Assembly (NCBI GenBank): GCA_044225175.1
Contig: JBGAJA010000002.1
Location: 600,991 to 664,990 of the forward strand
DNA from: Candidatus Omnitrophota bacterium
GTDB lineage: Bacteria; Omnitrophota; Gorgyraeia; Zapsychrales; Fredricksoniimonadaceae
DNA length: 64,000 bases
Direction: 5' to 3'
The translations under genes and the position numbers were made by a program. The number at the start of each line of letters is the position of its first letter. Positions within the stretch are counted from its first letter, which is position 1. Below the pieces are notes generated by a model. The model did no database searches. It saw nothing but the letters and a program-made list of their open reading frames with translations, and was not told where the DNA came from. This document shows positions 16,826-59,102 of this stretch, in pieces.

Positions 16826-16833
16826 ACTTTGGA

Positions 16834-18129: not shown

Positions 18130-18153
18130 TTCTGCCCCCTTAAGATGATATTT

Positions 18154-19362
18154 TTATTTAATTAACATATTCATTTGGAAAATTGGTAAAAGCATGGCCA
18201 TAACAACAGAACCTACGATGGTTCCCATGACAAGAATGAGTATAGGTTCAATTAAAGTTGTCATATTCTTGATAAAACGTTGAATCAAACGTTCGTAATA
18301 TTGCGCAAGTTTGTAAAGCCCTTTGGCTAAATGTCCTGTTTCCTCACCAATTGTAATCATTTGGGAAGCTGTCTCAGGGAATAAAGAGATTTTCTCAATG
18401 GCATGAGCTAAACTTTCTCCTTTATTCACATCAGTCTCAATTTGTGACAGGGCATTTTTGAAAACTTGATTCTCCATAACTAAAGCCACACTTTTTAAGG
18501 CGGCAACAATGGTGACTCCATTATCCAGCAGAGTAGCTAATGTACGACTAAAACGCTCTATTTCTACATTTCTAAGAAAATTTCCAAAAATTGGTAATTT
18601 TAATTTAAATGTGTCTATCTTCAGCCTTCCTTCTTCAGCCAAGCTCATTTGTCTTAAAGCAAATCCTAAGCCAAAGATAACCAACGCTATTAGCCACCAA
18701 AAATGAGAGAAGAAACTGCTCAGCCCAAGTAATATTTGTGTAGGCAAAGGTAAGGTTTGATTCAAATCATCGAAGATTGCGCTAAGACGGGGAATGACCC
18801 ATGTAAGTAATACAAAAATAGTGATGGCCCCAACAGTCATAATCAAAGAAGGATAGACTAAGCTTGCTTTAATTTGCATTTCAGTATCTTGCTGGCGTTC
18901 ACTGAATTCTGCTAGACGCTGCATGACTTGATTAAGATTGCCGCTAATTTCTCCTGATTTGATAAGATTGACATACACAGGCGCAAATGTTTCAGGAAAT
19001 TTTTCTAAAGATTCAGAAAGCATGGAACCGTCTTTGACAGAAGTGTGAATTTCTCCAAGCATTTCTTTTAAAACAGGATGGTTGGTTTGTTTGTGGATAT
19101 GATTGATGGATTTTAATAACGGCACATCCGCTTCAATCAAATCGCTTAATTGTCGAGTAAACAAGATAATCTCTCGGGCAGGGACTTTTTTAGAAAAAAC
19201 AAAATTAAGAGCACTGGAACGTTCTTCTTCTTTAGAAACATCGATCGGAGTATATCCCAATTCTATAATTTTTTTGATAGCGCTATCGAGATTGTCAGCT
19301 TCAATGCGTCCTTGAACTGTTTTTTGTGGGCCTTGTTTTGCTGTATAAGAAAAGAGAGCCAT
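18154..19362 (-). CDS. gspF: GspF/PilC-family inner-membrane platform protein
   Basis: 402 aa with two repeated GspF domains, three TM segments and the conserved GEETG-like motif (ITIGEETGHL). Confidence 0.9.
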   Translation of the reverse strand: MALFSYTAKQGPQKTVQGRIEADNLDSAIKKIIELGYTPIDVSKEEERSSALNFVFSKKVPAREIILFTRQLSDLIEADVPLLKSINHIHKQTNHPVLKEMLGEIHTSVKDGSMLSESLEKFPETFAPVYVNLIKSGEISGNLNQVMQRLAEFSERQQDTEMQIKASLVYPSLIMTVGAITIFVLLTWVIPRLSAIFDDLNQTLPLPTQILLGLSSFFSHFWWLIALVIFGLGFALRQMSLAEEGRLKIDTFKLKLPIFGNFLRNVEIERFSRTLATLLDNGVTIVAALKSVALVMENQVFKNALSQIETDVNKGESLAHAIEKISLFPETASQMITIGEETGHLAKGLYKLAQYYERLIQRFIKNMTTLIEPILILVMGTIVGSVVMAMLLPIFQMNMLIK

Positions 19363-29457: not shown

Positions 29458-32400
29458 ATGAAAAAATCGGTATGTTTGATTATTCTTCTGTGCTTTTTAG
29501 TTACAGGCATTGCGGGGCCTCGCTCTACTTTTGCCAGTGACATTCCTCAATTACCTCTTCCAGGAACTATGATGTCTTTGAGCCAGGCCTATATGCCTGT
29601 CATGATCAAAGGCCTGAAAGTCCATCCAGAGAATCCTTTGTTATTTGATTTCGTCGTGGATACAGGGAATTCTGGATTGTCCGTAGGGGCAGGGCTCGCC
29701 CCTGCCCAAAAAGGGCGACCGCAAGGGTCACCCCTACAAGACGAATCAAACAAATTAATCAAATATTTCCTAGCCTCATTAACTATCCCCGAAAAAGACC
29801 TCTGGGTGAATTTATCCCCCTATGAGAAAGACAGAATAGTTCCTGAAGAACTAGGGAACACCGAGCTAGGCCGAGACATGCTGGCCCAAGATTACATCCT
29901 CAAACAATTAACCGCTTCTCTAATTTATCCTGAGAAAGACCTAGGCAAGAAATTCTGGGACAAGGTTTATGCGAAGGCCCAAGCACTTTATGGCAATACG
30001 CAAATACCTGTGAATACATTCAACAAGGTATGGATCGTAGCTGATAAAGCCAAGGTTCTTGAGAGGAACAATGTGGGGTATATCGTTGGAGCGCATTTGA
30101 AGGTGATGTTGGAGGAAGATTATCTAGCTAATGAAAAAAATCAAACGCCAACCAGGGGACATGTTCATTACAAAACCAATAAGAACGTGTCCCCAAGCAT
30201 GCTGCCAAGCGAGACAGCGCTGAATGCGAAAGCACCCCAGGGAAACACCCCCAACGCCTTAGCAAACCAAATCATCCGCGACATCATATTGCCCGAATTA
30301 GAAAACGAGGTCAACCAAGGCCAAAACTTCGCCCCCTTGCGCCAAATGTTCTATTCCATGATCCTAGCCACATGGTACAAACAAACCCTAAAGAATGCCT
30401 TATTAAATCAAGTGTATAGCAATAAAGCCAAGATAGAAGGCGTCAAGAATGATGATCCTATTATCAAAGAAAAGATCTATCAGCAATACCTTAGTGCTTA
30501 CAAAAAAGGCGTATTCAATTACATCAAGGAAGATCTAGATTCAACCCCAGGCCAGAGAATTCCCAGAAAGTATTTTTCAGGCGGAATGATAATGGGTATC
30601 GAGAAAGTCTTGGATCGCACGCAGACAGAAACACCTCATGAACTAACAAGTCTGAAGACTGGGGACATGGCTATGGTCCAAGTTCTTATCAATAAATCTT
30701 CGGATTCTAGCAAAACTCCTGAACCAGTCTTGGCAGAGAATCCAATCATAAAGAAGCTGCTCGATTTACAAGAACAAGGAAAAAAATGGGAATTGATTTC
30801 AAATCCGCAATATGACGGGTGGATTGTTTATAAAGCAGGAAGTTTTTTTATTCATGTTCCTTCTAAAGAGGGAGCGCTTGAATACAGTCAGCAACAGGTC
30901 ATTGAGAATGCAGATTTTGTTTTGGCAAATGCTGGTAATACATTTGTTCCTACAACAAAAATTAACTTGAAACAAATGTCATTTCAAACACAGGTAGGTG
31001 AATATATAAAACCTGGCATTGTCTATATACAAAATGGTGTAGAACCATTGTTTAGTTTAAAAGGACAAAAGATAGGGCAAAGAATCATTAATCGAGGACT
31101 TTTATTCAGATTGGCAAAACAAGAAAGGTGGAAAAAGATTGCCCAAATCCTACAGAGCGCTATGACAACTACGCAACATATGTGGTCAAGAGGAATATTT
31201 GTCGAGGATACGACCGTTCTTGTTAATATGGGCATACCTAAAGGCGATTCGAATGCCATCTATTTTGATTTGGGAAATTTTTCTTCCAAAGTTCCTCCGG
31301 ACAAGGTTTTATTAAAGGTTCTTCAGGATTTACGTGCCGAGATACGAGCTACCGTAAAATTGCTTGATTTGCCTTTATCGTCAAAAGAAGTTGTTCTTTC
31401 AAATCTTAAGAAACAATTTTCTATAAGTAATTTCAGAAACACTTGGCAAAGTAAGATGCACGAACGCTCCAGAGTTGCTGATGCAGCCATGAATACTTGG
31501 CCAGAATATTTATATGCTGAAGAAAGAGCCCGTGAGATAGCACAAGGCGTAAAACAATTGACTCCAAATGAAATGAGCAGTCTTTATCAAATTATCGTAA
31601 GCCTCAGAATGCTACCTGAAGAATTAATTTCACAAACATTTGAGGAAGGTAAAAGGGTCGTTTTTCTTGGGATTCCCACTGCAAAAGGAGAAACCTATCT
31701 TGCTCGCCTGTTTAAAGCATTAAAGAATGAAAAATTCAAACCGACTCATTTAGCTTTACCTTTTGCTGAGAGGGATCGTGACAAATTAAATCGATTTATT
31801 GAAGGTCAGATTTCGGCCAGTGAATGGGGAATTAATTTGAATGGTGTTCATGAAAAAGATCTCGAATCTTTGCGAGTTCTACTTCACGGGATTAAAGATG
31901 ATGTGAAATTTGTTTTGTATGCTGATGAGGGTAGTCATAGTGGAGAATTAAAAGCTGATCAAGAAGCAAAGAACATTCTCAATGTTATTAATCTGGATAA
32001 GTCAGCACGGCTGTTAGTTGTAGGTAATTATGATCGGGTGGCGAAAGAGAATGTAGGTGGATCTCAATTATCTATACGCCGTATTGTTTCACAAAATATG
32101 GGTAGTGATCATATTTCTTCTATTGTCACGTCACATGGAGAAGATATGGAATCTTACTCATTGATAGGGATAAATAATTTCTTTGATATTTTCGAAAGGC
32201 ATTCTATTCCTATTAGCTTTGCTTTTCCAATTGCCAAAACTCCTTTGGAAGGACTGTCTTTTGATCAAGATTATCCACAAAGTACTTACGGTTTATTTGA
32301 TGGTTTCATTTATTTCAAAGATTCTGATGAGGATGGAGAAGGTTTCTTTGATAAGAAACCTGATGAACCTATTTTAGCAGACCATCCTACAGGCAGTGGT

Positions 32401-35400
32401 GACAGAAGAAGAGCAACGGTTGCTGCTACGAGCCCCGCCATGACCTCCAAGCCTAATATAGCTATCACTGTTCCTGGTAATGATACCGTTCTAACTCAAG
32501 AATTTTATGAAGGTTTAGATGATGCTGTTACGCAGATGGAAGAGTTTATAAAATTACAACAACCTGCTCAAATTATTTGTTTAGGCGGATCCCCTGAATG
32601 GATTTTTAGAGCTCTTGAAGTTAAAACTCAATTTCAAAATCCGAATCAGTATGCAGATCTAAGACGAAAAATTAAATATGTCGCCTTTAGTAGACCTGAA
32701 GGTGGCGTTTTTTATTACTCACAAAAAGAAGTAGATGCGTACCGCACATATTTAAAGAAATTAGGTATTACTCCCAGGAAAATTATTAATAGGGATAAGC
32801 CAACTATAATTGTTGATAAAAGTGAGTCAGGTGAAAGTTTAAGGGTTTTTATAAGAATTTTAGAAAAGTGGGCAGAAGATGTAAATATTAGCTCTTCTGA
32901 ATTAGGATTGAAATTGGGACTGAGAATTTTGAGTGATCATAGACTAATATCTAAAAATGGAGTTATTAGACTTTTTAATCCTTGGAATGATATTCCAGAA
33001 ATATATCTCACAACTCTTGACTCCGGAGGGTTAGCTAGTGTTCAGATTATTGCTCGGCCAATCAATAATACGATAGACAGAAGTGAAACAAATGATCTGG
33101 GAAGATTTGTGCCCAGGTATTCGCGCGACCAATGGGTATCAAGTCGACCGATTCCTTTGGCAAAAGATATTGATAACGCTAAAAGAACGATTGAAAAGAT
33201 TGTTACGTATTACCAGGATAAATTATCATCAGCTCCAGTAGCGAACAATTCAGACCCTCGTAAGGAAGAAGGTCCTATTTCTGAGAATTTAAGACTTTTA
33301 GCAATTAACCGTCTTTTGCCAGCAGCTATTACGGATTTTGATGAACGGCTTAAAATTATTAAATACATCATTGCAACGTTTAAAGATCAATGGGAAGAGG
33401 CTATTTCTCTTTTAGGTCATCATTTAATGGATTCTAAAGAGTGGGAGATGATTGATCGAGCATTAAGACATGGATTGCCCTTAGTAACGATTGCGGAATG
33501 GGCCCATTATAGTTTGAATGATGGGAAGATCACCTTCAGATCTTTTCCAATTGAATTTCAAAATAAAATTTTTGAAGAAAGTAAATCTAGTCGTGGCATT
33601 ACTCGTCTTGAATTACAAGATTTGTGGATGATTTATAGTTGTTTGATGAAAGTAGTAAAAGCAAAAGAACAGGAAGGTCAAATTGAACAGAAGGCGGCAG
33701 AAGATTTTTATGCTCGTATGCCGGTCTTCAAATCCGTTCCTGAATTTGAGGCATATGCTTCCGCAGATTATCGAGCTCGTTATGAAAGAGCTGCAAAAGA
33801 TTTGTTGGCAGAGCAAGGGTTAAAACAAATCACATTTCATTCTTTAGTGCTGATGATCAAGGGGTTGTCTTTTAATAGGCATATGCCGCGTGGTAATTAC
33901 CTTTCAGTTGTGATTCATGACAATAACGGTTTTAAACCGGTTCAATTGAATGACTTCTTATGGGAAGGACCAATTGCTATTGATCAAGTGGGATTTTTTA
34001 CCAAAGATCTTGGGAAAGGAATTGAGGGTAAAAAGGAGAGCTTGAGCATTGAAGTTACTGGTGGAGATTTAAAGAAAGTATTAAAAGGACATCTTTTTGA
34101 CGATGAAGAAATTAGACCTTTGTTAGGATCAATTGAATTTCAACGAGATCCGCGAGATTTATCAAAAGCTAAAATTTATTGGATCCAAGCTTGGCTAAGA
34201 CAAAGTGATCGTCTAACTCCCGAGGTAAGAGCTAAATTAGGTTCTATTGAAGAAATGGTTTTAAAAGCCTTTCATGCCTACGCGAAACAAAATGGTATTA
34301 AGACTATTCAATATAGAACAGGAAGCAGGTTCTTTAGAGATGTTCCCTTGGTTGCACGTCAGACCGTCAACCGTGTGAATAAATTATTTCAAAATAATGG
34401 ATATCGTCTCGTTTTTGATGAGAAAAAGAAGGAATGGTTTTGGCAGATTGAAATTAATGCCGCTATGATCACCACGTCCACTGCTAAAAAGACGGTTTCG
34501 ACTATATCTGACCAGGAGTTTTTTGATAGGGCTTTAAAGATATTAGATCAAGGGATTGATAAAAGTCGTAAATTAGTAACAAAGATTACGGATGATTATC
34601 AATCAACTAAACAATCACCAACCAGGCGTCTTGAACAATTGACTTTATCGCTTAGTCTTTTGCGACACAACTTAGCAAATTATGAATTTTTTGATGTTTT
34701 CGGCAGCATATTAATGAAAGAGCTTTATGCGCGTAAAAAAAGTGATGGGTTTGAATATTCCATCGATCAAATTCATACTCCTATCGATGCAAATGGAAGA
34801 CATGAAGCGGCCCTTTCAAATTTATTTGATCTCAAGGAGAAGATGTCAGAGAAAGGAGCTGTCATCAACATCGATCATTTCAGACAACAACTTAATTTAA
34901 TTTTTCAATCTTATTTTATGACACTGTTGGCAGAACTATCTCTTAGGGCCTTAGATGGAGATGTCTCCTATAATCTTAATCAATTGCAGAGAGTTCTAAA
35001 CAAGATTCAAGAAGGTAGTGGAAGCGTATTTATCAAAGATGCCAGGACCTTATGGACAATTGCAACTTCGCCCGTTGTTGTTGAAGAAAGAGCTTCTCAG
35101 GCGTATGAAATTTTTAGTCGACGCATTTATAGCGATAAAGTCTCCCGCAATGATCGTATAGCTCATGCCATTATCAATGTGAAGGCCAATGGCATCCATC
35201 TTTTTCAAGTGATAGGCAGGCTTTCTCTAGCATCTGCGGATAAAGAAAAAGCTCAATCGCAAATTGATTTTAATAGTGTCGATTTTCAGTTGTTAGTTAA
35301 GGGTTTGGCGGTGTTGATGCCCCGTTACGAAGAAATTTTGAAGTTAGAAGAGAGAGGACCTTTATTGGAAGACATTAGAAAAGAAAAAGAAGACATAGTT

Positions 35401-37635
35401 GAGGCGCTGATATTTGCTTTGGGTGGTTTGAGGTTTTTTTGGGAATTTGGGGGCAATTTGGAGCTTATTCTTAACTCCTTACCAGCGAATTTAAAACAAT
35501 TGAAGGAGACTTTGTCTTACTTTGGCCGTTTGGCAGATCCTCTGATGAAAGATATAAAAAATTTGGATTTAAGTAAATCTATTTATTCACCTATCCAACA
35601 TACCAATATTTTACCGCACCGTACGTTGAACGCTTTATTTACTTCTGCTTTCAACCAGGTAGGAACAGAAAAGCCTCTGCGTTTGTTTAGCTATGAAGAG
35701 CTAATGCGTTCCTCCTCAGGGCTAGAAGGACAAGAAAAGCTTAATTTATATGAATTATTTAGAAGGAACGATGGTAAGGGTAGACTAGAAAATTTTCTAA
35801 CAATAACTAAGGGAATTTACCAAGAAGTTCAACATGATTTGGTAGTGTTAAGGGATCATGGAATGTTAGTTAAGCAAGATTCAAATTTTCCTTATATATT
35901 TAAACCTGAAGATATAGAAAAAGTCAGACAAGTACAGACAGGACTGTCAAAGTTGTTCGCAAGGAAGTCTTCTACAAATATTTTTACTGAGGGAAATTAT
36001 CGTTATGAATTGGTAAGCTTTGATGATCGTTTGGCGTTATCCAAGGATTCTGGAAAAGAATATCCTCCCTCAGTGAGCGTTCTTGTCTATGACAAAGACA
36101 GCAATGCGCCTATCTACACAGCTCATGTAATGTGGCAAAGACCCAAGCTGACGCAAGATCAATCGCTTGAGCCTGTTTGGATGGAGTATCATCCTAAGGG
36201 TGGCATCCCTGAAGGTATTGACACTAAAATGATTTATGGATCGTTCTCCCGTTTAAGCCAAAAACCTGAAATGTCTTTTTTCTTTGTGAATGGTCAACAA
36301 CGGGACAATATGAGTTTTCAACGATACTTTAGTCGTTTTAATACGTTGTATCTCTTCCAAAGGCATGTCAACAGTACGAGGCCGATTCTAGATGTGGTAT
36401 TGGATACGATGAATCAACTTCAAATTCCATATTCTCAAGAAACATTAGTCAAAGATATAAACTTCATTTCAAAAATCCTAGCAAGATATTTGGATTGGTC
36501 TGAATTAATGTACATTAATACAACGTTATCTGTGATTAAAGCTTATCAGATAAAGAAAGGTTTACGCAGTTTAGAGGAGGCAACTAATGTTCTAAGGGCG
36601 ATGATCAAGGATGAAGATTTGTTAGGATCTATAGAGGATATAAGCCTTGAGTTAAATAAGGGGAATAAAGATCCTTATAAGATATCGAGTCCCAAGAATC
36701 TCATTTATTATCTGACAGGAAAAGGACCTCTTTTCTTGGATAAAGCATTTCAATTACGTGAAGCTTTAAGAAAAGCATATCCAGATTTAAGTGTATTAAG
36801 AAGGGAAGTTGCTGGGAAAAATAGTTTAGAAGAGTCGGAAATATTAGGACAAAAGGTCACTGTCGATGGAAAGGTTGATGAAAGATACACGGCGCGAAGT
36901 GTTGAGAAATTATTTTATTATCTTGGGAAGGAATCCTATTTTCTTGAGAGGGCAGTTGAGCTACGTGAAGCTTTAAGAACAGCATATCCAGATCTAGAGT
37001 CATTGCGAGAGGCTTTGAGGGATAAAAGGGGTTTAGAAGCAGCTGAAATCCTAAGAGGGAAGCTGATCAAGGATAGAGTAGTCGATCATAGATATACACC
37101 TGTAGGTGTTGAACAATTACTGCATTATCTTTTTGGAAGAAATGTCCGTTTTTTAAATAGCGCCCTTGAACTGCGTGAAGCTTTAAGAAAGAAATATCCG
37201 ACATTAGAAGATCTTATCGGTTCTCTCATTGATGACCGAGGGCAAGAGTTTTCAAAAAGGGAAGTCCACTCATTATGGCTCCGTTCTATGCAAAAGGGAG
37301 TGTCTAAAGGAAATTTCAAAACCAATGCTGATGCTCTATGGGATGAACTGCGTAAATTATTCAATGCAAGAAAAAAAGCTGCAAGCGGCTCTACTCCTGC
37401 CATGATTTCCAACAAGCCCGATGAAACAATGCTTAGAAAAACTCCTGGTGGTATTGATTTAGACGCTAAGAATATGGGGTTAGATATTATGAAAGAAGGC
37501 AATGGTATTAAGATATCATTCGATCCTGTTTTAATTGCAGAATTCGAAAGGGGTGATTTTTCAGGGGTCATCCCAATTATTATTAATATTACCCCTCTTT
37601 CTAGTCCTTTGACTTTGTTAGGGTTGAGTCCATAA
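29458..37635 (+). CDS. Giant secreted protein (2725 aa), paralog B of the family. It has a signal peptide, the conserved N-terminal module, a long mostly alpha-helical unique core, three tandem repeats of about 72 aa, and the conserved C-terminal GGIDL module.
   Basis: Signal peptide MKKSVCLIILLCFLVTGIAGPRSTFA. The N-terminal roughly 380 aa are co-linear with the 7060 gene, with two insertions. The C-terminus TPGGIDLDAKNMGLDI...FDPVLIAEFERGDFSGVIPIIINITPLSSPLTLLGLSP parallels RGGIDLNTSSGMQWKI...IDPAMIQKIQREGIDWAVPVILRMTPVASIWPLVGL. Confidence 0.75.
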   Translation: MKKSVCLIILLCFLVTGIAGPRSTFASDIPQLPLPGTMMSLSQAYMPVMIKGLKVHPENPLLFDFVVDTGNSGLSVGAGLAPAQKGRPQGSPLQDESNKLIKYFLASLTIPEKDLWVNLSPYEKDRIVPEELGNTELGRDMLAQDYILKQLTASLIYPEKDLGKKFWDKVYAKAQALYGNTQIPVNTFNKVWIVADKAKVLERNNVGYIVGAHLKVMLEEDYLANEKNQTPTRGHVHYKTNKNVSPSMLPSETALNAKAPQGNTPNALANQIIRDIILPELENEVNQGQNFAPLRQMFYSMILATWYKQTLKNALLNQVYSNKAKIEGVKNDDPIIKEKIYQQYLSAYKKGVFNYIKEDLDSTPGQRIPRKYFSGGMIMGIEKVLDRTQTETPHELTSLKTGDMAMVQVLINKSSDSSKTPEPVLAENPIIKKLLDLQEQGKKWELISNPQYDGWIVYKAGSFFIHVPSKEGALEYSQQQVIENADFVLANAGNTFVPTTKINLKQMSFQTQVGEYIKPGIVYIQNGVEPLFSLKGQKIGQRIINRGLLFRLAKQERWKKIAQILQSAMTTTQHMWSRGIFVEDTTVLVNMGIPKGDSNAIYFDLGNFSSKVPPDKVLLKVLQDLRAEIRATVKLLDLPLSSKEVVLSNLKKQFSISNFRNTWQSKMHERSRVADAAMNTWPEYLYAEERAREIAQGVKQLTPNEMSSLYQIIVSLRMLPEELISQTFEEGKRVVFLGIPTAKGETYLARLFKALKNEKFKPTHLALPFAERDRDKLNRFIEGQISASEWGINLNGVHEKDLESLRVLLHGIKDDVKFVLYADEGSHSGELKADQEAKNILNVINLDKSARLLVVGNYDRVAKENVGGSQLSIRRIVSQNMGSDHISSIVTSHGEDMESYSLIGINNFFDIFERHSIPISFAFPIAKTPLEGLSFDQDYPQSTYGLFDGFIYFKDSDEDGEGFFDKKPDEPILADHPTGSGDRRRATVAATSPAMTSKPNIAITVPGNDTVLTQEFYEGLDDAVTQMEEFIKLQQPAQIICLGGSPEWIFRALEVKTQFQNPNQYADLRRKIKYVAFSRPEGGVFYYSQKEVDAYRTYLKKLGITPRKIINRDKPTIIVDKSESGESLRVFIRILEKWAEDVNISSSELGLKLGLRILSDHRLISKNGVIRLFNPWNDIPEIYLTTLDSGGLASVQIIARPINNTIDRSETNDLGRFVPRYSRDQWVSSRPIPLAKDIDNAKRTIEKIVTYYQDKLSSAPVANNSDPRKEEGPISENLRLLAINRLLPAAITDFDERLKIIKYIIATFKDQWEEAISLLGHHLMDSKEWEMIDRALRHGLPLVTIAEWAHYSLNDGKITFRSFPIEFQNKIFEESKSSRGITRLELQDLWMIYSCLMKVVKAKEQEGQIEQKAAEDFYARMPVFKSVPEFEAYASADYRARYERAAKDLLAEQGLKQITFHSLVLMIKGLSFNRHMPRGNYLSVVIHDNNGFKPVQLNDFLWEGPIAIDQVGFFTKDLGKGIEGKKESLSIEVTGGDLKKVLKGHLFDDEEIRPLLGSIEFQRDPRDLSKAKIYWIQAWLRQSDRLTPEVRAKLGSIEEMVLKAFHAYAKQNGIKTIQYRTGSRFFRDVPLVARQTVNRVNKLFQNNGYRLVFDEKKKEWFWQIEINAAMITTSTAKKTVSTISDQEFFDRALKILDQGIDKSRKLVTKITDDYQSTKQSPTRRLEQLTLSLSLLRHNLANYEFFDVFGSILMKELYARKKSDGFEYSIDQIHTPIDANGRHEAALSNLFDLKEKMSEKGAVINIDHFRQQLNLIFQSYFMTLLAELSLRALDGDVSYNLNQLQRVLNKIQEGSGSVFIKDARTLWTIATSPVVVEERASQAYEIFSRRIYSDKVSRNDRIAHAIINVKANGIHLFQVIGRLSLASADKEKAQSQIDFNSVDFQLLVKGLAVLMPRYEEILKLEERGPLLEDIRKEKEDIVEALIFALGGLRFFWEFGGNLELILNSLPANLKQLKETLSYFGRLADPLMKDIKNLDLSKSIYSPIQHTNILPHRTLNALFTSAFNQVGTEKPLRLFSYEELMRSSSGLEGQEKLNLYELFRRNDGKGRLENFLTITKGIYQEVQHDLVVLRDHGMLVKQDSNFPYIFKPEDIEKVRQVQTGLSKLFARKSSTNIFTEGNYRYELVSFDDRLALSKDSGKEYPPSVSVLVYDKDSNAPIYTAHVMWQRPKLTQDQSLEPVWMEYHPKGGIPEGIDTKMIYGSFSRLSQKPEMSFFFVNGQQRDNMSFQRYFSRFNTLYLFQRHVNSTRPILDVVLDTMNQLQIPYSQETLVKDINFISKILARYLDWSELMYINTTLSVIKAYQIKKGLRSLEEATNVLRAMIKDEDLLGSIEDISLELNKGNKDPYKISSPKNLIYYLTGKGPLFLDKAFQLREALRKAYPDLSVLRREVAGKNSLEESEILGQKVTVDGKVDERYTARSVEKLFYYLGKESYFLERAVELREALRTAYPDLESLREALRDKRGLEAAEILRGKLIKDRVVDHRYTPVGVEQLLHYLFGRNVRFLNSALELREALRKKYPTLEDLIGSLIDDRGQEFSKREVHSLWLRSMQKGVSKGNFKTNADALWDELRKLFNARKKAASGSTPAMISNKPDETMLRKTPGGIDLDAKNMGLDIMKEGNGIKISFDPVLIAEFERGDFSGVIPIIINITPLSSPLTLLGLSP
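36682..37275 (+). repeat. Three tandem in-frame repeats of about 215 nt (about 72 aa) inside the giant gene
   Basis: Repeated L.YYL.G...FL..A.ELREALR.AYPDL..LR.....G.E..EIL..K...D..VD.RYT units. The nucleotide cores CGTGAAGCTTTAAGAA(A/C)AGCATATCCAGAT are nearly identical. Confidence 0.6.
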
Positions 37636-51461: not shown

Positions 51462-51812
51462 ATGAAAGACATACTGCATAAAACGAACGAAATATTAAAG
51501 GGTAAGGGCAAAAGAATATTGATTGAAGAACATTCTCAAGATAAAGAGTGTGTTTCAAATATACGTAAAAACTTCTTATACCTTGCTAAAGAGGTAGATT
51601 TTCAAGAAGACCCATGTGTGCCGGAGGTGCGTGTACGTAAGTCTTATGATAGTTTAAATCGCAATGAGAAGTTTTGCATGAGGGTTAAAGGGTTCTTCTA
51701 TATTAATCGCAATCGACGCCTCATTAAGGTGGGGTATCATCATACGTTGAAGATCTTGTTGCACTGGAAGTCAGCTATTGTTTCTCCAAGTAAATCGGTG
51801 TCATTGGCCTAG
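51462..51812 (+). CDS. Hypothetical small basic protein (116 aa); coding status uncertain
   Basis: An open frame downstream of plsY with no recognisable motif. Confidence 0.25.
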   Translation: MKDILHKTNEILKGKGKRILIEEHSQDKECVSNIRKNFLYLAKEVDFQEDPCVPEVRVRKSYDSLNRNEKFCMRVKGFFYINRNRRLIKVGYHHTLKILLHWKSAIVSPSKSVSLA

Positions 51813-51837
51813 GAAACCATCCCGATGTATATGGGCA

Positions 51838-51873
51838 AAAAGCTTCATTCTAAAAAGGAATGAGGCTTTTTTG
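51838..51873. terminator. Bidirectional hairpin terminator between the convergent small ORF and the GT2 gene
   Basis: AGCTTCATTC, loop TAAAAAG, GAATGAGGCT (one mismatch), then TTTTTTG. T-runs follow on both strands. Confidence 0.45.
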
Positions 51874-51877
51874 TTGA

Positions 51878-53548
51878 TCACTTCTTTTTGCGGTTTCTTT
51901 TGCCTTTATCGCTCACCCAGAATTCCAGATATTTTCCAAACATTAATCGAGTCTGAGCGTCTAAAGCGGGGAGGGCGCTTAAGAAAACCAAGATAAAAGG
52001 AATGAGTAACCATTCTAAGGCATGGCCAATTTTGACTAGGAAAGGGTATCGTACATCAGCTTTAGGAAGAAGGGCAATGCTTAGAATCACAGAGGTAATT
52101 AAGCACAAGGATGCAAGATTAAAGATGATACTTGAGATTTGAGGGATATTGTAATAAACCACGGAAGAAGCAAATTCATGGCGTGCAAAGACAATCGTCA
52201 GCCAGCCTTCAAAAGTCAGAATAAACCCCCATGTAGCCCAAGACCAATGGCCTTCCAGCAATTTAAACGCATGTCGAATTTTATCCCAGACAGGGATTCT
52301 TTTGTTGTAGATAAATGCTCGTAGAACTAATGGAATATTTTCGACCCCCCAAGCCCAGCGGCGTTTTTGTTTATAGACGCTTTTAACTGTCTCCCACCAA
52401 TTCTTGGCGCTCACAATGTCCATAGAAAGTGTGACATACATAGGGATAACTTGATATTTTCCGTCATAGTGAATGTAACATTTCCAAAAAATGGCAGAAT
52501 CATCTGAAATCATGTCCACAGGCCAATAATCTACATCAACGAGGGCTTTAAAACTCATGCTATGGGAAGAAAATGTCACAAGTTTCTCAGGATTCGTTGC
52601 TTCAATCAATTGAAAGAAGGATGATCCACTTTCGATGACTCGGGCGAACCCTGGGACATGCCAAATATTATTATGATACACAGGAATTGGTTGGAAACTG
52701 CAGCGCTGGCGTTCTGGGGTAATCATAAAGTGGTAGGTTAGACAAGCAAAGTAGTTTTTATCCACAACCGTATCTGCATCAAAGCAGGAGACTATGACAT
52801 TCTCAAAGAGAATATTTCGTTGGTTCAGGTACTCGGTGGCTTTTTTAGCTGCGTATGTCACATTGGCGCCCTTGACTCTGGCCTCTCCAGGAATATCGCT
52901 TGGATGAAGAACGCTCATACAATCATAAAAGAAAGATTTATATTTGTTTTCGATTTCAAAGACTCCATCTTTGATGTTTTGAGCGGCACGTTCTTCTAGG
53001 GCAAACACAATAATAATTTGTTTAGAAGAAAATTGTTGGTCCTTGATGGCCCGAATGGCGGGTTCAATAACCTCATGAGATTCTTTGATAATGGGGAAAA
53101 TGACCAGATGATAAATATCATTGGATAAGGCAGATAAATTCTTACTATCTTTAAGTTTTTTTAGTGATTGGTAGTGGACCCAAAGAGGATAAGACTTTTT
53201 TGAGGCAGGAACTTTATGAGGTTTTCCTAGAATAATATCATCGACTTCCTGGACTCTTTTTATCCATTTTGTTTCATTTTCCATATGTAAACGCATATAG
53301 GAAAGGACCAGAAATAACGTCAAATAAAGAAGTCTAAGAAGCCAGCAAAGATAAAAGGAAATGGTGATGATCGCTGCAGTAAATGGAAAAAATATTGCAA
53401 GAAAAGCCATAGCTAACAATGTCATCCAGCTAAGAAATCCAGGAAGTATTTCCAATCTTCTTTGCCAGATAGCATCTTTGGGTTTTAGATTCTCTTTTGA
53501 ATAATTAAAACGCATGATTAACTTCCTTGAGTCTAAGTTTATCCGCAA
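51878..53548 (-). CDS. Processive family-2 glycosyltransferase (cellulose/chitin/hyaluronan-synthase-like), integral membrane
   Basis: N-terminal and C-terminal TM bundles flank a GT-A domain with the DAD motif (VIVSCFDADTVVD), ED motifs and QKRRWAWG (the QxxRW processivity motif). Start-codon choice (53548 or 53515) is ambiguous. Confidence 0.8.
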   Translation of the reverse strand: MRINLDSRKLIMRFNYSKENLKPKDAIWQRRLEILPGFLSWMTLLAMAFLAIFFPFTAAIITISFYLCWLLRLLYLTLFLVLSYMRLHMENETKWIKRVQEVDDIILGKPHKVPASKKSYPLWVHYQSLKKLKDSKNLSALSNDIYHLVIFPIIKESHEVIEPAIRAIKDQQFSSKQIIIVFALEERAAQNIKDGVFEIENKYKSFFYDCMSVLHPSDIPGEARVKGANVTYAAKKATEYLNQRNILFENVIVSCFDADTVVDKNYFACLTYHFMITPERQRCSFQPIPVYHNNIWHVPGFARVIESGSSFFQLIEATNPEKLVTFSSHSMSFKALVDVDYWPVDMISDDSAIFWKCYIHYDGKYQVIPMYVTLSMDIVSAKNWWETVKSVYKQKRRWAWGVENIPLVLRAFIYNKRIPVWDKIRHAFKLLEGHWSWATWGFILTFEGWLTIVFARHEFASSVVYYNIPQISSIIFNLASLCLITSVILSIALLPKADVRYPFLVKIGHALEWLLIPFILVFLSALPALDAQTRLMFGKYLEFWVSDKGKRNRKKK

Positions 53549-54773
53549 TCACTTGTGGGGTTAAAGGAATTTGTCTCAGAATTTGGACGCTAGCAAGTAA
53601 GCTTTCTTGTGGCTCAATAAAATAAATTCTTCCTGTCTTCTCATTGTAGAAGAACGAAGTGTCAGATCGAATATTGGTGATTTTTTGTATTCGATTGGTA
53701 CCAAACATTTCTTTATCCAATAGAAAGACCTCATTGTTGTCTTTAAACAATACATTGGAGGCATTATTGGCCCAGAAAGCTTGAGAAATGTTATGTCCTT
53801 TTTGGAAAAGCCAACGCAAAGACTTTTGACTATTGTCCCACATGCCGATTTTGGTAGGGGTGAAAATGAGAAGAGAGTTTTTATTCTCGTCACCAATAGT
53901 TCCTTTAAAGTTCATTAATTTAAATGAGGATTTCTTGGAAAGAGGAATCTCTTTGGCGGCAATATCCGGAAAGATTGCTTTGGCTTTAATATCAATACGG
54001 TTGGTTTGAGTTGGGTAGTATACATAAATGATTTTCTCTTCATTAGCCTCCCACCAGAGTTTAGCAGGCTCCATGGGGATTAAATCGCTAATATCTTCAA
54101 CATGGATTTGTTTGTCCCTGGCATCAATCCATAAATATTTATCCTTTGTCTCCATAAGAATATGGATGATAAAAAATGGACTCTTAGGTACAGTAAAGAA
54201 ATTGATAATCTGTCCTTCGCTATAAATGAATTCTTCGGGTAAGAGTTTGGATACCAATGAGGAGTCAATCTGAACGCTGTTATCTTCTGATGAAGCTTTG
54301 TTGAGTCGAAGAAGGTAAAGGTCTTTGATCGTTTGTTTGTTCCACATTAAAAGGGCGCTTTCATCTCCAACGGCTTGGATATGTTCAAAATGAATAGGGC
54401 TAAGTGGTCTAATTAGCCATTGGGGAGGTGTTAAAAGAATGTTTTCAAGGACAGTTGCTTTACGAGCAACAACGGGAATTATATTGTCCCAGTTTTGATA
54501 ACCTTTGAGTTTCAAGATCACCTTATAATCATTGGGAGTCAGATCGCGAATCATGGTTGGGGTTGTTTCATTGGCTAAGTTCTCATTAATGAAGACTTGA
54601 GCTCCAGGAGGGTTAGTTGAGACGTAAATAATGCCTGTCTTGACGAATTGATGTCTTTGGGGATTATAGACGAATCCCATGAGTCGAAGGATGAGTAAGG
54701 GGCAGACAACCAAATAAATAGCTGCAAAAATGTAGAAGAATATTTTTCTTAGAGTGGGCATAAACGTCGTCAA
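53505..54773 (-). CDS. Membrane-anchored PEGA-domain protein, co-operonic with the GT2 synthase
   Basis: N-terminal TM IFFYIFAAIYLVVCPLLILRLMGF, then a PEGA-like beta domain (GIIYVSTNPPGAQVFINENLANETTP...DYKVILKLKGYQNW), then a large periplasmic domain of unknown fold. It overlaps the GT2 start. Confidence 0.55.
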   Translation of the reverse strand: MTTFMPTLRKIFFYIFAAIYLVVCPLLILRLMGFVYNPQRHQFVKTGIIYVSTNPPGAQVFINENLANETTPTMIRDLTPNDYKVILKLKGYQNWDNIIPVVARKATVLENILLTPPQWLIRPLSPIHFEHIQAVGDESALLMWNKQTIKDLYLLRLNKASSEDNSVQIDSSLVSKLLPEEFIYSEGQIINFFTVPKSPFFIIHILMETKDKYLWIDARDKQIHVEDISDLIPMEPAKLWWEANEEKIIYVYYPTQTNRIDIKAKAIFPDIAAKEIPLSKKSSFKLMNFKGTIGDENKNSLLIFTPTKIGMWDNSQKSLRWLFQKGHNISQAFWANNASNVLFKDNNEVFLLDKEMFGTNRIQKITNIRSDTSFFYNEKTGRIYFIEPQESLLASVQILRQIPLTPQVIADKLRLKEVNHAF

Positions 54774-54868
54774 TCTTAAATCAACATATCGAATAAGTCA
54801 ATTAAAGGAATTAGAGGCTGCTTGACATATTACTTAGCTTATGCTAATTTTTAGCGGGGGTTAACTAT

Positions 54869-55309
54869 ATGTCTACTGTTAAACGTCAACAAACAGCTAA
54901 AGCAATTTCGGTCCTCATTCCTCATATTGTCCAAGGGGCGCATTTAGGTGTGTTTGTCAGCCGCTCAATCACACAAACTCAATTCTTGATCCTTGTATGC
55001 CTGCATTCCAAGGGGATCTGTACTATGGGAGATATTGCTTCCCATTTGAAGGTCAGTATGCCGACCGTAACGGGCTTGATTAATCGCTTGGTTGAAGCTA
55101 AATACATTAAACGAATTCCAGATCCTAAAGACCGCCGTCAAGTTATGATTGGCCTCACACCGAAAGCACATACATTTCTAAAACAATTTCAGACAATTAT
55201 TGCTCAGCGCTGGATGGAGGTTCTAAGTATCTTAGATACAAAAGAGCTAGACCATTTTCATTCGATAATTCATAAACTAAATGATTCATTGGAGAAGCAA
55301 AGAACATGA
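54869..55309 (+). CDS. MarR-family transcriptional regulator
   Basis: Winged helix-turn-helix: TQFLILVCLHSKGICTMGDIASHLKVSMPTVTGLINRLVEAKYIKR...DRRQVMIGLT. Confidence 0.8.
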   Translation: MSTVKRQQTAKAISVLIPHIVQGAHLGVFVSRSITQTQFLILVCLHSKGICTMGDIASHLKVSMPTVTGLINRLVEAKYIKRIPDPKDRRQVMIGLTPKAHTFLKQFQTIIAQRWMEVLSILDTKELDHFHSIIHKLNDSLEKQRT

Positions 55310-56601
55310 GAGTTTTTTTGTCTGTTTTAATTTTTGTCTGGAGTGTGTCCAGTCTTAAGGCCCAAGAGCCGCTTCATTTAAGTCTACATGATGCAGTTGA
55401 TTTAGCTGCAAAGCAAAATCTTCAAGTACTAGCTGCCAACAAACGTGTTCTTCAATCGATGGCTAATATCTCAATTAATAAAGCTGCACTCATGCCGCAA
55501 GTGACAGGTGTGTTTGGAGGAAAAAGACAAACGATTGACACAAGATCATCTGGTATTCAATTTTCAGGCGATCCTCATATAGGACCATTTAATAGTTTTG
55601 ATGCAAGAGGAGAGTTGACCCTCGCTATTTTTGATCCAGAAGCACTCGCTCGTTTGCGGTCAGCAAGAGCAGCAGGGAGACTTTCAAAAGCCCAGACGGT
55701 GAAGGTGAAACAAGATTTATTGGCCCTCGTTGGAGCCATGTATCTGGAAGCCAAAAGGGCAAAAGAGAATATTGATGTAAACAAGATTACTCTTCAAGAA
55801 GCACAGATGCAGTTTCGAGTTTTCGAAACACGTTTTAAGCAAGGATTAGCTTCTGAGTCTGAACTTCAAAAAGCAAAAGTTGACTTGTCTCGTGCAGAGT
55901 ATTCTTATGAGTCTTCTCTCATTAGATCTAAAGAAAAGAATTTGGATTTGGCATCTGCTTTGAATCTTCCTTTGGATCAACAAATAGTTTTTGATGAGGA
56001 TTACAGTGAGCTCACCAAAGAATTGCAAGAGGCAACGCTTTCAGCGGATGTTCTAGTTGCCCAAGGTCAATTAGAGCAAACTCGAGCAGAAGCCCTTCAA
56101 ACTCAAAGACAGTTATTTCCTAAGGTTATAGCTGCTGGTGATTATGGACGAGAGGGAGAGTCCTTTGAACGTTCAAGCAATACATATAGCCTTGGAGTAA
56201 TGATGAAGGTCCCTATTTGGCAAGGTGGAGAAACTCAGGCTCAGATCAAGCAAGCTCAATTGAAGACCCAAGAAGACGAGATTCTGCTTCAAGATGCCAA
56301 GAGTCAAAGTGAAGTCACTTTGAGAAAGGCTAAAGAGCATTTAGTCCAAGCCAAACTCTTTGTTAAATCAACCAATGAGGAGATGCTGTATAACAAATAT
56401 CAGTTGAACATCATTCAAGGTCTTCTGAAATCTGGGCAAGCCAATGAATTGGATGTTGTTCGTTATGAATCCATCTATGCAGCATCTTTAGATCAAAATC
56501 TTGAGGCTCAAGCGTTCTTTTGGACTGCAAAAATCAATTTGGCACATGCCTTAGGAAAGATTGAAGAGATTTTTTCCGCCAATCAGGAGAAACAAAAATG
56601 A
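55306..56601 (+). CDS. TolC-like outer-membrane efflux protein (OEP family)
   Basis: Signal peptide, two repeated coiled-coil/beta OEP halves, 431 aa; translationally coupled to the downstream HlyD and ABC genes. Confidence 0.75.
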   Translation: MRVFLSVLIFVWSVSSLKAQEPLHLSLHDAVDLAAKQNLQVLAANKRVLQSMANISINKAALMPQVTGVFGGKRQTIDTRSSGIQFSGDPHIGPFNSFDARGELTLAIFDPEALARLRSARAAGRLSKAQTVKVKQDLLALVGAMYLEAKRAKENIDVNKITLQEAQMQFRVFETRFKQGLASESELQKAKVDLSRAEYSYESSLIRSKEKNLDLASALNLPLDQQIVFDEDYSELTKELQEATLSADVLVAQGQLEQTRAEALQTQRQLFPKVIAAGDYGREGESFERSSNTYSLGVMMKVPIWQGGETQAQIKQAQLKTQEDEILLQDAKSQSEVTLRKAKEHLVQAKLFVKSTNEEMLYNKYQLNIIQGLLKSGQANELDVVRYESIYAASLDQNLEAQAFFWTAKINLAHALGKIEEIFSANQEKQK

Positions 56602-57275
56602 AGACATTATTTGTGATTACGTTAAGTTTATTTTTGATGACGGGTTGTTCAAAGAAGAATGATGTTTATAGTACCAATTATTCAGGCACATTGGAATTAA
56701 CAGAGCATGTCTTAGGAGCCAAGCTTCCTGGAAGGCTTACAACTTTAACTGTCAAAGAAGGTGACTTAGTTAAGGCTTCTCAACTTTTAGCAACCTTAGA
56801 TCATTATGAACAAGCCAAGAAAGATTTAGAGCGTACTCAAGAGTTATTTAAGAGTGGTGGCGCTACAGCCCAGGCTGTTGAATATGCTCAGCTGACTCTA
56901 CAAGATCAACAAATTGTTTCTCCTATTGATGGGGTTGTTTTAGTAAAAGCTGCTGATATTGGTGAAATGCTGCAGGCAGGAGCTGGGGTGCTTGTCATTG
57001 GGAACCCTCAAGAGCAATGGATCAAGGTTTTCTTGCCTGAAGGTTTGATGGGACAAGTCAAATTAGGACAAAAAACATCCATTCGTGTGGATGGTATTGA
57101 TAAAGCTTATGAAGGGCATGTGAGTTTCATTGGGACCAAAGGAGAATTCACCCCCCGCAATTTGCAATCCAAAGAAGATCGTATGACTCAGGTCTTTGCT
57201 CTAAAGGTTGTTGTGGATCATCCCGATGAAAGTATTCATCCTGGAGTTTCAGCCCAAGTGGAGTTTAAGAAATGA
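56598..57275 (+). CDS. HlyD-family periplasmic adaptor (membrane fusion protein), lipoprotein
   Basis: Lipobox LMTGC. Biotinyl/lipoyl-like hairpin ATLDHYE...IVSPIDGVV. A short 225-aa adaptor. Confidence 0.7.
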   Translation: MKTLFVITLSLFLMTGCSKKNDVYSTNYSGTLELTEHVLGAKLPGRLTTLTVKEGDLVKASQLLATLDHYEQAKKDLERTQELFKSGGATAQAVEYAQLTLQDQQIVSPIDGVVLVKAADIGEMLQAGAGVLVIGNPQEQWIKVFLPEGLMGQVKLGQKTSIRVDGIDKAYEGHVSFIGTKGEFTPRNLQSKEDRMTQVFALKVVVDHPDESIHPGVSAQVEFKK

Positions 57276-58006
57276 GTAATGTAGCAATTGAAGCCAAGGA
57301 ATTGACGCGAAAGTTTGGCAAATATACTGTTGTAGATAAGGTCTCATTCACATTACCATATGGGTGTATTTTCGGGTTTCTTGGTGCCAATGGGGCGGGA
57401 AAAAGCACCACCATTCGTATGCTCTGTGGAATTCTAGCTCCTACAAGCGGCTCTGGTAGCGTCGGGGGATTCGATATTAATACCCAGCCAGAGGAAATTA
57501 AAACAGTCATTGGCTATGTGTCCCAGCGTTTTAGCTTGTATTCTGATTTGACAGTTATTGAGAATCTGATGTTTTATGGGCGCGTGTATGGTCTGACGAA
57601 TGATGATTTAAAGAATCGTATCGAAGAGGTCCTTCAAATGACTGGTTTGCATGAATATCGGGAGCGCCTTGCAGGAGAGCTATCTGGAGGTTGGAAACAA
57701 AAGTTAGCTATTGCAAATGGCATCTTGCACAAGCCTCACATTCTTTTTCTTGATGAACCAACTGCAGGGATTGATCCATTATCTCGAAGGTCTATTTGGG
57801 CCTTATTATTTCAATTGGCTAAAGAAGGCACGGCCTTATTTATAACCACCCACTATATGGAAGAAGCAGAGCGCTGCGACACGATTGCTTTTATCAGCCA
57901 GGGTAAACTTTTAAAAGTGGGGCCGCCTTCAGATTTTAAGAAGATCGCCCCAACATTAGATGAGGCCTTTGCGATCCTAGAATCCCAAGGAGCTTACATT
58001 GCGTAA
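57272..58006 (+). CDS. ABC transporter ATP-binding protein (ABC-2 type exporter)
   Basis: Walker A GANGAGKST, Q-loop, signature LSGGWKQKLAIA, Walker B ILFLDEPTAGID, H-loop. Confidence 0.9.
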   Translation: MSNVAIEAKELTRKFGKYTVVDKVSFTLPYGCIFGFLGANGAGKSTTIRMLCGILAPTSGSGSVGGFDINTQPEEIKTVIGYVSQRFSLYSDLTVIENLMFYGRVYGLTNDDLKNRIEEVLQMTGLHEYRERLAGELSGGWKQKLAIANGILHKPHILFLDEPTAGIDPLSRRSIWALLFQLAKEGTALFITTHYMEEAERCDTIAFISQGKLLKVGPPSDFKKIAPTLDEAFAILESQGAYIA

Positions 58007-59102
58007 TATCAAAGCCATTATTGCTAAAGAAATCATTCATATTCTACGTGATCGTAAGACGCTGTTTATGGTCATTTTGATGCCTGTAATGCAGGTGTTG
58101 ATCTATGGGTTTGGGGTCAATACGGATGTGCGTCATTTACGAACCTATGTTTATGATCAAGATCGAACATACTTGAGTCGAAGTTTGGTGGATGCTTTTG
58201 TTCAATCAGAATATTTTAAAATCAGTAAAGATGTCACTTCACTCAAAGATGTTGAAGAGGGAATGAATAAAGGCAAGGCACAGGTAGCAATCATTATTCC
58301 ACCAAATTTCACAGCTGATATTTTAAAGAAAAAAGGTACTCAATTGCAACTATTGATTGATGGCACGGACTCAAACCCGGCGAACGTGGCGTTAAATTCT
58401 AGTCAGTCGATTGTAACAAGCTTCATGCAGACTCAAGGATTCATTCAAGTGCCTGTTATGCCAATCGATTTTCGTCCAAGGCTTTGGTATAACCCAGAAC
58501 TGAAGAGCACCTTTTTTATGCTTCCAGGGTTGATTGCACTCGTGTTACAACTCATTGTTCCTATGATTACGGCAAGTGCCATTGTCCGCGAAAAAGAACG
58601 GGGCAATATTGAACAGCTTTTAGTGACCCCTATTAAACCCTATGAGTTAATTCTAGGTAAGATTATTCCTTACATTGCCATTGGAGTTATAATTGCCAGT
58701 AGTATTGTTATGTCCATGCATTTTATGTTTCAAGTTCCAATCCGTGGCAGCATACTGACTTTATTTACATTAACGCTGTTGTATTTGATTGTCTGTTTAG
58801 GGATAGGATTATGGGCTTCAACGATTTCAGAAAATCAACAGCAAGCTTCTCAAGTTGTCATGTTTTTTGCCATGCCATCCATTTTGCTCTCAGGTTTTAT
58901 ATTCCCAAGAGAAACCATGCCGCTGTGGGTCCATCACATTGGCTATTTTCTTCCTATGACATACTTTTTAACGATTGTTAGGGGAATTATTCTGAAAGGT
59001 ATGAGTTTTCTGGATTTAATCGAACAAATTTGGCCTTTAGTTGTGATGGCTACAGTCGTCATTATTTTGAGTATTAAACGTTTTGGTAAAAGGATTGCTT
59101 AA
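57999..59102 (+). CDS. ABC-2 family transporter permease
   Basis: One N-terminal TM, a periplasmic domain of about 150 aa, then five C-terminal TM helices (ABC-2 architecture). Confidence 0.8.
   Translation: MRNIKAIIAKEIIHILRDRKTLFMVILMPVMQVLIYGFGVNTDVRHLRTYVYDQDRTYLSRSLVDAFVQSEYFKISKDVTSLKDVEEGMNKGKAQVAIIIPPNFTADILKKKGTQLQLLIDGTDSNPANVALNSSQSIVTSFMQTQGFIQVPVMPIDFRPRLWYNPELKSTFFMLPGLIALVLQLIVPMITASAIVREKERGNIEQLLVTPIKPYELILGKIIPYIAIGVIIASSIVMSMHFMFQVPIRGSILTLFTLTLLYLIVCLGIGLWASTISENQQQASQVVMFFAMPSILLSGFIFPRETMPLWVHHIGYFLPMTYFLTIVRGIILKGMSFLDLIEQIWPLVVMATVVIILSIKRFGKRIA

Follow-up and report, generated by a model that had tools for sequence, protein, structure and literature searches.

What is made, and where is it sent, by a membrane-bound family 2 glycosyltransferase (GT2) that is encoded together with a PEGA-domain protein? 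The question is raised by two overlapping genes on the minus strand of a 64,000-nucleotide stretch (hereafter, the window) of a Candidatus Omnitrophota bacterium (GenBank assembly GCA_044225175.1, contig JBGAJA010000002.1, positions 600,991 to 664,990). Our analysis makes it probable, though well short of certain, that the two genes form a translationally coupled, synthase-dependent polysaccharide module, in which the upstream PEGA protein (the partner) would dock onto the glycosyltransferase (GT) through its transmembrane helix and its PEGA domain. An earlier reading of the DNA, made from its letters and open reading frames (ORFs) and called here the sequence-only reading, had given coordinates at which the ORF list and translation confirm both ORFs, on the minus strand. 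It had likened the GT to the synthases of cellulose, chitin, hyaluronan and poly-N-acetylglucosamine (PNAG), an assignment to the class of BcsA, hyaluronan synthase (HAS), chitin synthase and PgaC that agrees with the motifs, the Foldseek matches and the profile matches described below.

The motifs of the GT are those of a polymer synthase. Its sole Pfam family is Glyco_trans_2_3 (PF13632; 34.6 bits against a cut-off of 27), and this score, together with the invariant D246-A-D248, places it in GT2. In addition to the motifs listed in Table 1, the GT has a KAG-like K215-G-A-N, FQP at residues 274-276, FSSHS at residues 315-319—the position of FFCGS in BcsA—and E145/E174, which align with BcsA and PgaC in the acidic residue slot of the synthase motif set and are kept in 122 representatives of the family (clusters at 50% identity). 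The set as a whole is invariant in 18 Omnitrophota sequences and conserved in the 122 representatives (DxD in at least 90%). The sequence-only reading had described a processive set consisting of DAD, ED and QKRRWAWG; the first and the last stand (QKRRWAWG occupies residues 383-390), whereas the catalytic base, ED in most of the wider family, reads DD (D338-D339) in the window GT. On alignment with BcsA and PgaC, the catalytic residues are kept. At the C terminus, most homologues carry FxVT[DE]K, with VT.K conserved in the 122 representatives and F.VTEK in the Patescibacteria-type consensus; E. coli BcsA has FNVTAK at 617. FxVTxK is the signature of the BcsA gating loop and is counted among the motifs that interact with the uridine diphosphate (UDP)-sugar (PMC11658790, PMC10374906). 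In the window GT the corresponding FWVSDK sits in a K/R-rich tail (KGKRNRKKK) past the third C-terminal hydrophobic helix, and the protein ends 8 residues later.

Profile and structure comparisons lead to the same class. A profile built from the 122 sequences matches E. coli BcsA over the catalytic core (hhalign probability 97.4%, E = 1e-11) and PgaC in an alignment that extends through the C-terminal helices (97.1%, E = 7e-11); the GT is thus about equally distant from both and a member of neither, which settles the check on its nearest synthase that the sequence-only reading had proposed. Its only NCBIfam match is PgaC/IcaA (TIGR03937), at 32.9 bits against an equivalog cut-off of 422.3. A PilZ or Cellulose_synt match in Pfam does not appear even at E <= 10, and since the GT is without a PilZ domain, control by cyclic di-GMP is not expected. 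A tblastn search of the GT against plasmids gave no match. Hydropathy and an AlphaFold2 (AF2) model agree with the sequence-only reading that membrane helices flank the GT domain on both sides, with two transmembrane helices N-terminal and three hydrophobic helices C-terminal to it; in this part of the model the predicted local distance difference test score (pLDDT) is 50-65, and the helices contain conserved aromatic residues. A loop at about residues 446-459 would face the periplasm. The top Foldseek matches in the PDB are BcsA (5ej1/4hg6), the HAS of Chlorella virus and yeast Chs1, at E ~2e-5. Taken together, motifs, predicted fold and profile matches support placing the GT in the membrane-embedded, QxxRW-type class of processive synthases. 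The last of its helices may be an interface helix like IF3 of BcsA, which would leave the tail in the cytoplasm, as suggested by the positive-inside rule applied to KGKRNRKKK and by analogy with IF3 itself.

The partner matches the Pfam PEGA family (PF08308) with 38.6 bits against a cut-off of 20.8 (E = 1e-9), and hydropathy, AF2 and Pfam concur on the single transmembrane helix and the PEGA beta-sandwich that had been read from the sequence. The remainder, described in that reading as a large periplasmic domain, is still predicted to lie on the periplasmic side but has to be redescribed: in the AF2 model (pLDDT 84.5, built from a 37-sequence alignment) and by Foldseek, the C-terminal region is a predicted beta-propeller of 6 or 7 blades. 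Its best Foldseek matches are the leptospiral antigen Lp49 (3bws, E = 1.6e-11) and WD40-type propellers; more than 1200 matches fall at E <= 0.001, and most of the 50 listed are propellers, of the WD40 type and others. Because a short basic N terminus (MPTLRK) is followed by a single transmembrane helix, the PEGA domain and the propeller would both lie in the periplasm. The three parts of the protein differ in how fast they change. Across 69 orthologous partners, median identity to the window protein is 55% in the transmembrane anchor, 47% in PEGA and 25% in the propeller, the fastest-evolving part, and within and near the transmembrane helix, residues R, F, Y, P and G reach at least 90% conservation. 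Such a pattern would be expected of an anchor and a PEGA domain in contact with a highly conserved synthase and of a propeller that faces a more variable environment or substrate.

The pairing of the two genes is not a matter of chance. In a one-genome-per-species scan with two strict peptide patterns, the GT was found in at least 279 species, a lower bound that amounts to roughly 40% of the Omnitrophota species, of which GTDB holds somewhat more than 700 (bioRxiv 10.64898/2026.06.07.730766). The closest relatives of the window are, without exception, metagenome-assembled genomes from this phylum, and the same PEGA-GT locus is carried by Candidatus Velamenicoccus archaeovorus (L084, 5520-8653). 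The PEGA gene accompanies the GT in 76 of 81 non-redundant loci; four of the remaining five break off at a contig end, and in the fifth a 473-aa ORF stands where the PEGA gene would be. Of 69 upstream partners, 68 match PEGA. Partner and GT overlap in 39 of 68 pairs (by 4 nt in 28 of them), and in 27 more they are separated by 0-30 nt. The genomic context thus shows the upstream gene to be co-conserved and translationally coupled with the GT, and the sequence-only reading had named the lack of such co-conservation as a result that would count against it. The identity of the GT across the phylum (52-80%) is about the same as that of PlsY, LepB and PgsA in the same loci. By this sequence comparison the GT is conserved at the level of housekeeping genes, which is unusual for a biofilm exopolysaccharide synthase, and because this conservation extends across the phylum, a constitutive envelope component fits better than an accessory biofilm polymer. 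We consider that the product is probably a constitutive homopolymer of the envelope or periplasm, and not an accessory biofilm matrix. Many of the metagenome-assembled genomes (at loci L010, L015-L017, L019 and others) are titled "uncultured Planctomycetales/Planctomycetia bacterium"; these titles look like labelling artefacts, since the GT, the partner and the neighbouring genes group with Omnitrophota.

Within the window, the pair is a self-contained two-gene operon, bounded by an inverted repeat downstream and by a divergent intergenic region upstream (Table 1). For the GT, the ATG at 53515 is most likely the start, because homologues align from MRFNYSKENL and a Shine-Dalgarno sequence, AAGGAAG, lies 6 nt upstream of it. 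The call in the source genome (P0001, 556 aa) begins at the TTG at 53548 and would carry an excess of 11 codons (53516-53548, minus strand) if the ATG is right. For the partner, the most likely start is the ATG at 54761, because the NCBI-called protein (P0121) has 418 aa and is 100% identical; the ORF from which the sequence-only reading had taken a length of 422 aa does exist, but the shorter length is the likelier one. With both ATG starts, the genes overlap by 11 nt (ATGCGTTTTAA). The arms of the inverted repeat, AAAAAGCTTCATTC and GAATGAGGCTTTTT, are 93% complementary in the repeat search, and the hairpin is likely a bidirectional terminator closing the operon; a simple terminator scan, whose matches were not above those in shuffled sequence, did not flag it. 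The upstream region presumably holds the promoter of the pair. It contains a match to TTGACT-17-TAAGAT on the minus strand (54801-54773), which we rejected as a sigma-70 promoter call, such matches being no commoner than in shuffled sequence.

Table 1. Coordinates of the PEGA-GT pair, its motifs and domains, and its flanking elements, numbered from the first letter of the window
Feature	Position	Strand	Details
PEGA partner gene	53505..54761	-	418 aa from ATG 54761; maximal ORF 53505-54773, from TTG 54773, 422 aa
N-terminal signal-anchor transmembrane helix, ~residues 6-29, after MPTLRK	54675..54746	-	hydropathy peak 2.73 at residues 7-25; AF2 helix at residues 2-27
PEGA beta-sandwich, ~residues 43-103	54453..54635	-	PF08308
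Predicted beta-propeller, ~residues 113-395	53577..54425	-	24 predicted strands; AF2 secondary structure and Foldseek
GT2 synthase gene	51878..53515	-	545 aa from ATG 53515; maximal ORF 51878-53548, from TTG 53548, 556 aa
DxD motif, D246-A-D248	52772..52780	-	aligns with DCD of BcsA and DGD of PgaC
Catalytic-base motif, D338-D339 (ISDDSA)	52499..52504	-	aligns with TED of BcsA and TED of PgaC (YWSDDMITEDIDISWK)
QxxRW motif, Q383-K-R-R-W387	52355..52369	-	aligns with QRIRW of BcsA and QRLRW of PgaC
C-terminal motif, F532-W-V-S-D-K537	51905..51922	-	matches FxVTxK gating-loop signature
Inverted repeat, 14-nt arms	51837..51871		flanking A and T runs; between the convergent GT gene and 116-aa gene
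Divergent intergenic region, 95 nt	54774..54868		common to the MarR gene and the pair; ORF map

On either side of the operon lie genes that point away from it or converge on it. The 116-aa ORF that converges on the GT gene (51462-51812, plus strand) has no Pfam or NCBIfam match and was found by BLAST in 17 related loci (50-84% identical), in 11 of them about 100 nt or less from the GT stop. The MarR gene heads an OEP-HlyD-ABC-ABC2 efflux operon (54869-59102, plus strand) that diverges from the pair. We rejected a functional link between this efflux operon and the pair: it adjoins the pair in only 16 of the 81 loci, all of them of the window's clade, and because the adjacency is confined to that clade we read it as local synteny.

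As the sequence-only reading had stated, no known partner is encoded nearby: BcsB, PgaB, PgaD, BcsC and AlgK-like genes were all absent from the 39 window ORFs scanned with Pfam, which are most but not all of the large ORFs, and BcsB was found neither in these nor in the related loci. Other Omnitrophota loci offer a different companion. In 15 of the 81, belonging to another clade of the phylum, the GT gene is directly followed by a gene for a clan GH-A glycoside hydrolase of ~370 aa, with a signal peptide and with invariant WQVENE and E-x-QAEPW motifs in which the catalytic glutamates are likewise invariant. The order PEGA partner-GT-GH-A is seen, for example, in locus L036 (8640-13516, of which 8640-9794 is the hydrolase gene) and also in L037, L044, L059, L070, L080 and others. 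Synthase-dependent systems typically have a periplasmic hydrolase as their third component, and such an enzyme implies a beta-linked polymeric product. Five of the 15 loci continue with OtsA, OtsB and TreT (trehalose-6-phosphate synthase, trehalose phosphatase and TreT), and in two other loci a gene of the alpha-amylase family GH13 directly follows the GT (L047, 5558-7021; L054, 8654-10141). These trehalose and GH13 neighbours, with the KAG-like and FxVTxK-like motifs, point weakly to UDP-glucose as the donor and a beta-glucan as the product; such motifs are common to Mycoplasma glucan synthases and BcsA (PMC11658790). Our identification of the product as a beta-glucan is accordingly a tentative one.

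The GT family extends well beyond the Omnitrophota. A search of representatives returned 2147 clusters at E <= 1e-3 and 440 at E <= 1e-30, with members in Patescibacteria (Berkelbacteria and Saccharibacteria) and in Actinomycetota (Brevibacterium casei, B. epidermidis, B. litoralis, Leucobacter and Pseudoclavibacter); the window GT and the B. litoralis protein share 28% identity over 527 residues (E = 9e-85), a span reaching from the N-terminal helices to the FAVTEK tail. Seven patescibacterial loci were examined, and in five of them the gene immediately upstream of the GT, overlapping or abutting it, encodes a small membrane protein (97-176 aa). The four of these small proteins that were examined in sequence have ~3 transmembrane helices each, and pairwise BLAST finds no similarity among them. 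Because a small membrane protein occupies this position in most of the patescibacterial loci examined, a co-translated membrane partner encoded upstream is a trait of the family, and the PEGA-propeller version its Omnitrophota form. In one patescibacterial locus (L092, 6773-7774) a WecA/MraY-family gene (Glycos_transf_4) overlaps the GT stop by 4 nt, which hints at a polyprenol-phosphate-linked primer in that lineage. The GTs of Brevibacterium, Leucobacter and Pseudoclavibacter (P0258, P0331-P0449; L094, L096) share 46-48% identity with those of Candidatus Saccharibacteria. Since the cultured members of Saccharibacteria live as episymbionts on Actinomycetota, the gene may have passed between the lineages of symbiont and host.

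If the pair is the polysaccharide module that we propose, it could work as follows. The 545-aa GT2 would reside in the inner membrane with its GT-A domain in the cytoplasm, polymerize sugar from a nucleotide-sugar donor by means of KGAN, DxD, DD and QxxRW, and thread the beta-linked chain through a channel formed by its own transmembrane helices, as do BcsA, HAS, chitin synthase and PgaC. The FxVTxK-like tail would probably close over the active site in the manner of the BcsA gating loop. The N-terminal helix of the partner would pack against the synthase, setting the PEGA beta-sandwich at the periplasmic exit of the channel, where the beta-propeller could bind, guide or modify the emerging polymer. 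The sequence-only reading had proposed export as well, but the pair has no linked outer-membrane component, so that the polymer may be retained in the periplasm.

A number of observations weigh against this interpretation, namely that (i) the GT, searched against PDB chains both by sequence and by profile, gave no match, even at E <= 10; (ii) the AF2 model of the GT, good in its GT-A core, is mediocre overall (pLDDT 63.5) and falls below 50 over most of residues 276-370, the most conserved region of the sequence; (iii) the TM-scores of the Foldseek matches are only 0.3-0.37; (iv) if all three C-terminal helices span the membrane, the C-terminal motif would be periplasmic and a gating-loop role impossible; (v) the case for a glucan is built on gene neighbours found in a minority of loci and on the similarity of motifs; (vi) neither the window nor the related loci link the pair to an outer-membrane porin of the BcsC, PgaA or AlgE type; and (vii) the Brevibacterium homologue has no adjacent partner, so that a partner is not always required.

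The opgG-opgH genes have the same order as the pair: a periplasmic, beta-rich protein is encoded first and is followed by an overlapping membrane GT2, and neither system has a dedicated outer-membrane exporter. The GT could, by this comparison, make oligosaccharides resembling osmoregulated periplasmic glucans (OPGs) that are kept in the periplasm, with the partner acting as OpgG does, which would be a special case of the polysaccharide module. The presence of OtsA-OtsB-TreT in five loci (trehalose being linked to osmoadaptation) and of GH13 in two would suit this idea, and conservation at the housekeeping level suits a role in envelope homeostasis. We nevertheless think it rather unlikely. 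Homology of the GT to OpgH was considered and rejected, hhalign giving a probability of 0.5% with a narrow profile and 8% with a broad one, compared to 97% for BcsA and PgaC; OpgG is a soluble protein of two beta-sandwiches, whereas the partner is membrane-anchored and combines PEGA with a propeller; and the trehalose link is limited to a few, probably related, loci.

QxxRW-type motifs occur as well in processive glycolipid glycosyltransferases, and the GT might add one or a few sugars to a diacylglycerol or polyprenol carrier without forming a channel, leaving the PEGA protein a separate role in the envelope. Lipid-related neighbours would fit: an MMPL gene, encoding a lipid transporter, is adjacent in four loci and overlaps the GT stop in L001, the WecA/MraY-family gene overlaps it in the patescibacterial locus described above, and the window pair adjoins the phospholipid genes PgsA and PlsY. 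The last of these neighbourhoods is, however, convergent and confined to a single clade. The five hydrophobic helices flanking the GT domain, with their conserved aromatics and the FxVTxK-like motif, are not what a glycolipid enzyme would be expected to show, multiple transmembrane helices being the signature that separates synthases from glycolipid GT2s (PMC11658790). Further, the best fold matches are channel-forming synthases, and the presence in the operon of a secreted glycoside hydrolase implies that the substrate is a polymer. Glycolipid synthesis is thus disfavoured by the transmembrane architecture, the fold matches and the linked hydrolase, and we judge it improbable. That the two proteins are instead enzyme and substrate, the GT glycosylating the PEGA-propeller protein or other envelope proteins, would fit their strict co-conservation and translational coupling but is extremely improbable, given that the catalytic domain is cytoplasmic and the bulk of the partner periplasmic, that the GT has the motifs and the fold of a polymer synthase, and that the tiny three-helix partners of Patescibacteria expose almost nothing to glycosylate.

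Although the class of mechanism is a known one, the synthase clade and the architecture of its partner are new. A literature search (PEGA with glycosyltransferase; Omnitrophota with polysaccharide synthase) returned no description of the pair or of the GT clade, and the GT proteins go by names such as "glycosyltransferase family 2 protein", "hypothetical protein" and "cellulose synthase/PNAG synthase-like". To the field of polysaccharide secretion, the pair would add a synthase clade outside BcsA and PgaC along with a new type of periplasmic partner, and the homologues in cultivable Brevibacterium open the GT family to experiment. Little is understood of the envelopes and host-contact surfaces of Omnitrophota and Patescibacteria, nanobacteria that are abundant but mostly uncultured, and a GT as conserved as PlsY and LepB is a strong candidate for the maker of a core envelope polymer. 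A bolder proposal, which we put forward as unlikely but worth stating, is that the family makes a constitutive, perhaps essential, envelope glycopolymer of the ultra-small, host-associated Omnitrophota and Patescibacteria, with the variable co-translated partners forming an unrecognized class of subunits that adapt one polymerase to different envelopes. If this were true, the polymer could belong to the cell coat or to the host-attachment surface of episymbionts.

Other parts of the window hold further genes of note. A cluster resembling type II secretion and type IV pilus systems (10871-21098, minus strand) encodes a secretin (581 aa), a PilM-PilN fusion (481 aa), a GspK-like protein, a GspF platform protein and a GspE ATPase with MshEN. 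Beside it are the genes of three very large proteins (21373-26223, 29458-37635 and 7060-10812, all on the plus strand); the one of 1616 aa has Ig, PKD and InlB B-repeat domains, and Pfam finds nothing in those of 2725 and 1250 aa. Omnitrophota are known for large surface proteins. At 60050-63220 (plus strand), genes for a DUF1295/steroid-reductase-like membrane protein, a cyclopropane-fatty-acid-synthase-like methyltransferase and a flavin amine oxidoreductase stand in a row and make up a possible lipid-modification cluster.

Several known systems can be set beside the pair. Lp49, the best structural match of the partner, consists of an Ig-like domain followed by a beta-propeller. The TM-score of 0.28 indicates a different arrangement of domains, the 12% identity gives no sequence relationship, and Lp49 has no known link to polysaccharide synthesis. 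On the side of the enzyme, the stand-alone capsular homopolysaccharide synthases of Mycoplasma are similarly minimal and synthase-dependent, occur in reduced genomes, and are GT2 proteins with transmembrane helices and no PilZ domain; the passages on these enzymes mention no partner, whereas the GT described here has a co-translated membrane partner and its host is a diderm.

The PgaC-PgaD and IcaA-IcaD systems make PNAG. PgaC/IcaA is the only family that NCBIfam detects in the GT, the profile match to PgaC runs through the C-terminal helices, and the two enzymes are similar in size and share a layout in which transmembrane helices precede and follow the GT domain. PgaC also depends on a small membrane partner, PgaD, which resembles the three-helix partners of the patescibacterial homologues. 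On the other hand, the window GT scores far below the family cut-off and is accompanied by no PgaA, PgaB or PgaD; its partner is encoded upstream and, in Omnitrophota, consists of PEGA and a propeller; and E. coli PgaC is without an FxVTxK-type motif.

A further comparison is with BcsA-BcsB. BcsA is among the best fold matches of the GT and matches the GT core in the profile comparison, and both are membrane GT2s with KAG-like, DxD, (E/D)D, QxxRW and FxVTxK-type motifs. The hydrolase in the operon of some members recalls BcsZ. There are also differences: the GT is without the PilZ domain and the Cellulose_synt match; it has two N-terminal transmembrane and three C-terminal hydrophobic helices, compared to eight transmembrane helices in BcsA; and its FxVTxK-like motif stands at the extreme C terminus, whereas that of BcsA lies in an internal loop. 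No BcsC-type porin is linked to the pair. BcsB is anchored by its C terminus, whereas the partner is unrelated to it, anchored at its N terminus and encoded upstream of the synthase. The suggestion in the sequence-only reading that the partner substitutes for BcsB or an AlgK-like protein has indirect support; the partner is homologous to neither. Like BcsB, the partner is a periplasmic, beta-rich protein that is held by a single transmembrane helix and encoded beside its synthase, and its position, its topology and the conservation of its transmembrane helix and PEGA domain make it a reasonable analogy, though not a homology, that it may work with the GT as BcsB works with BcsA.

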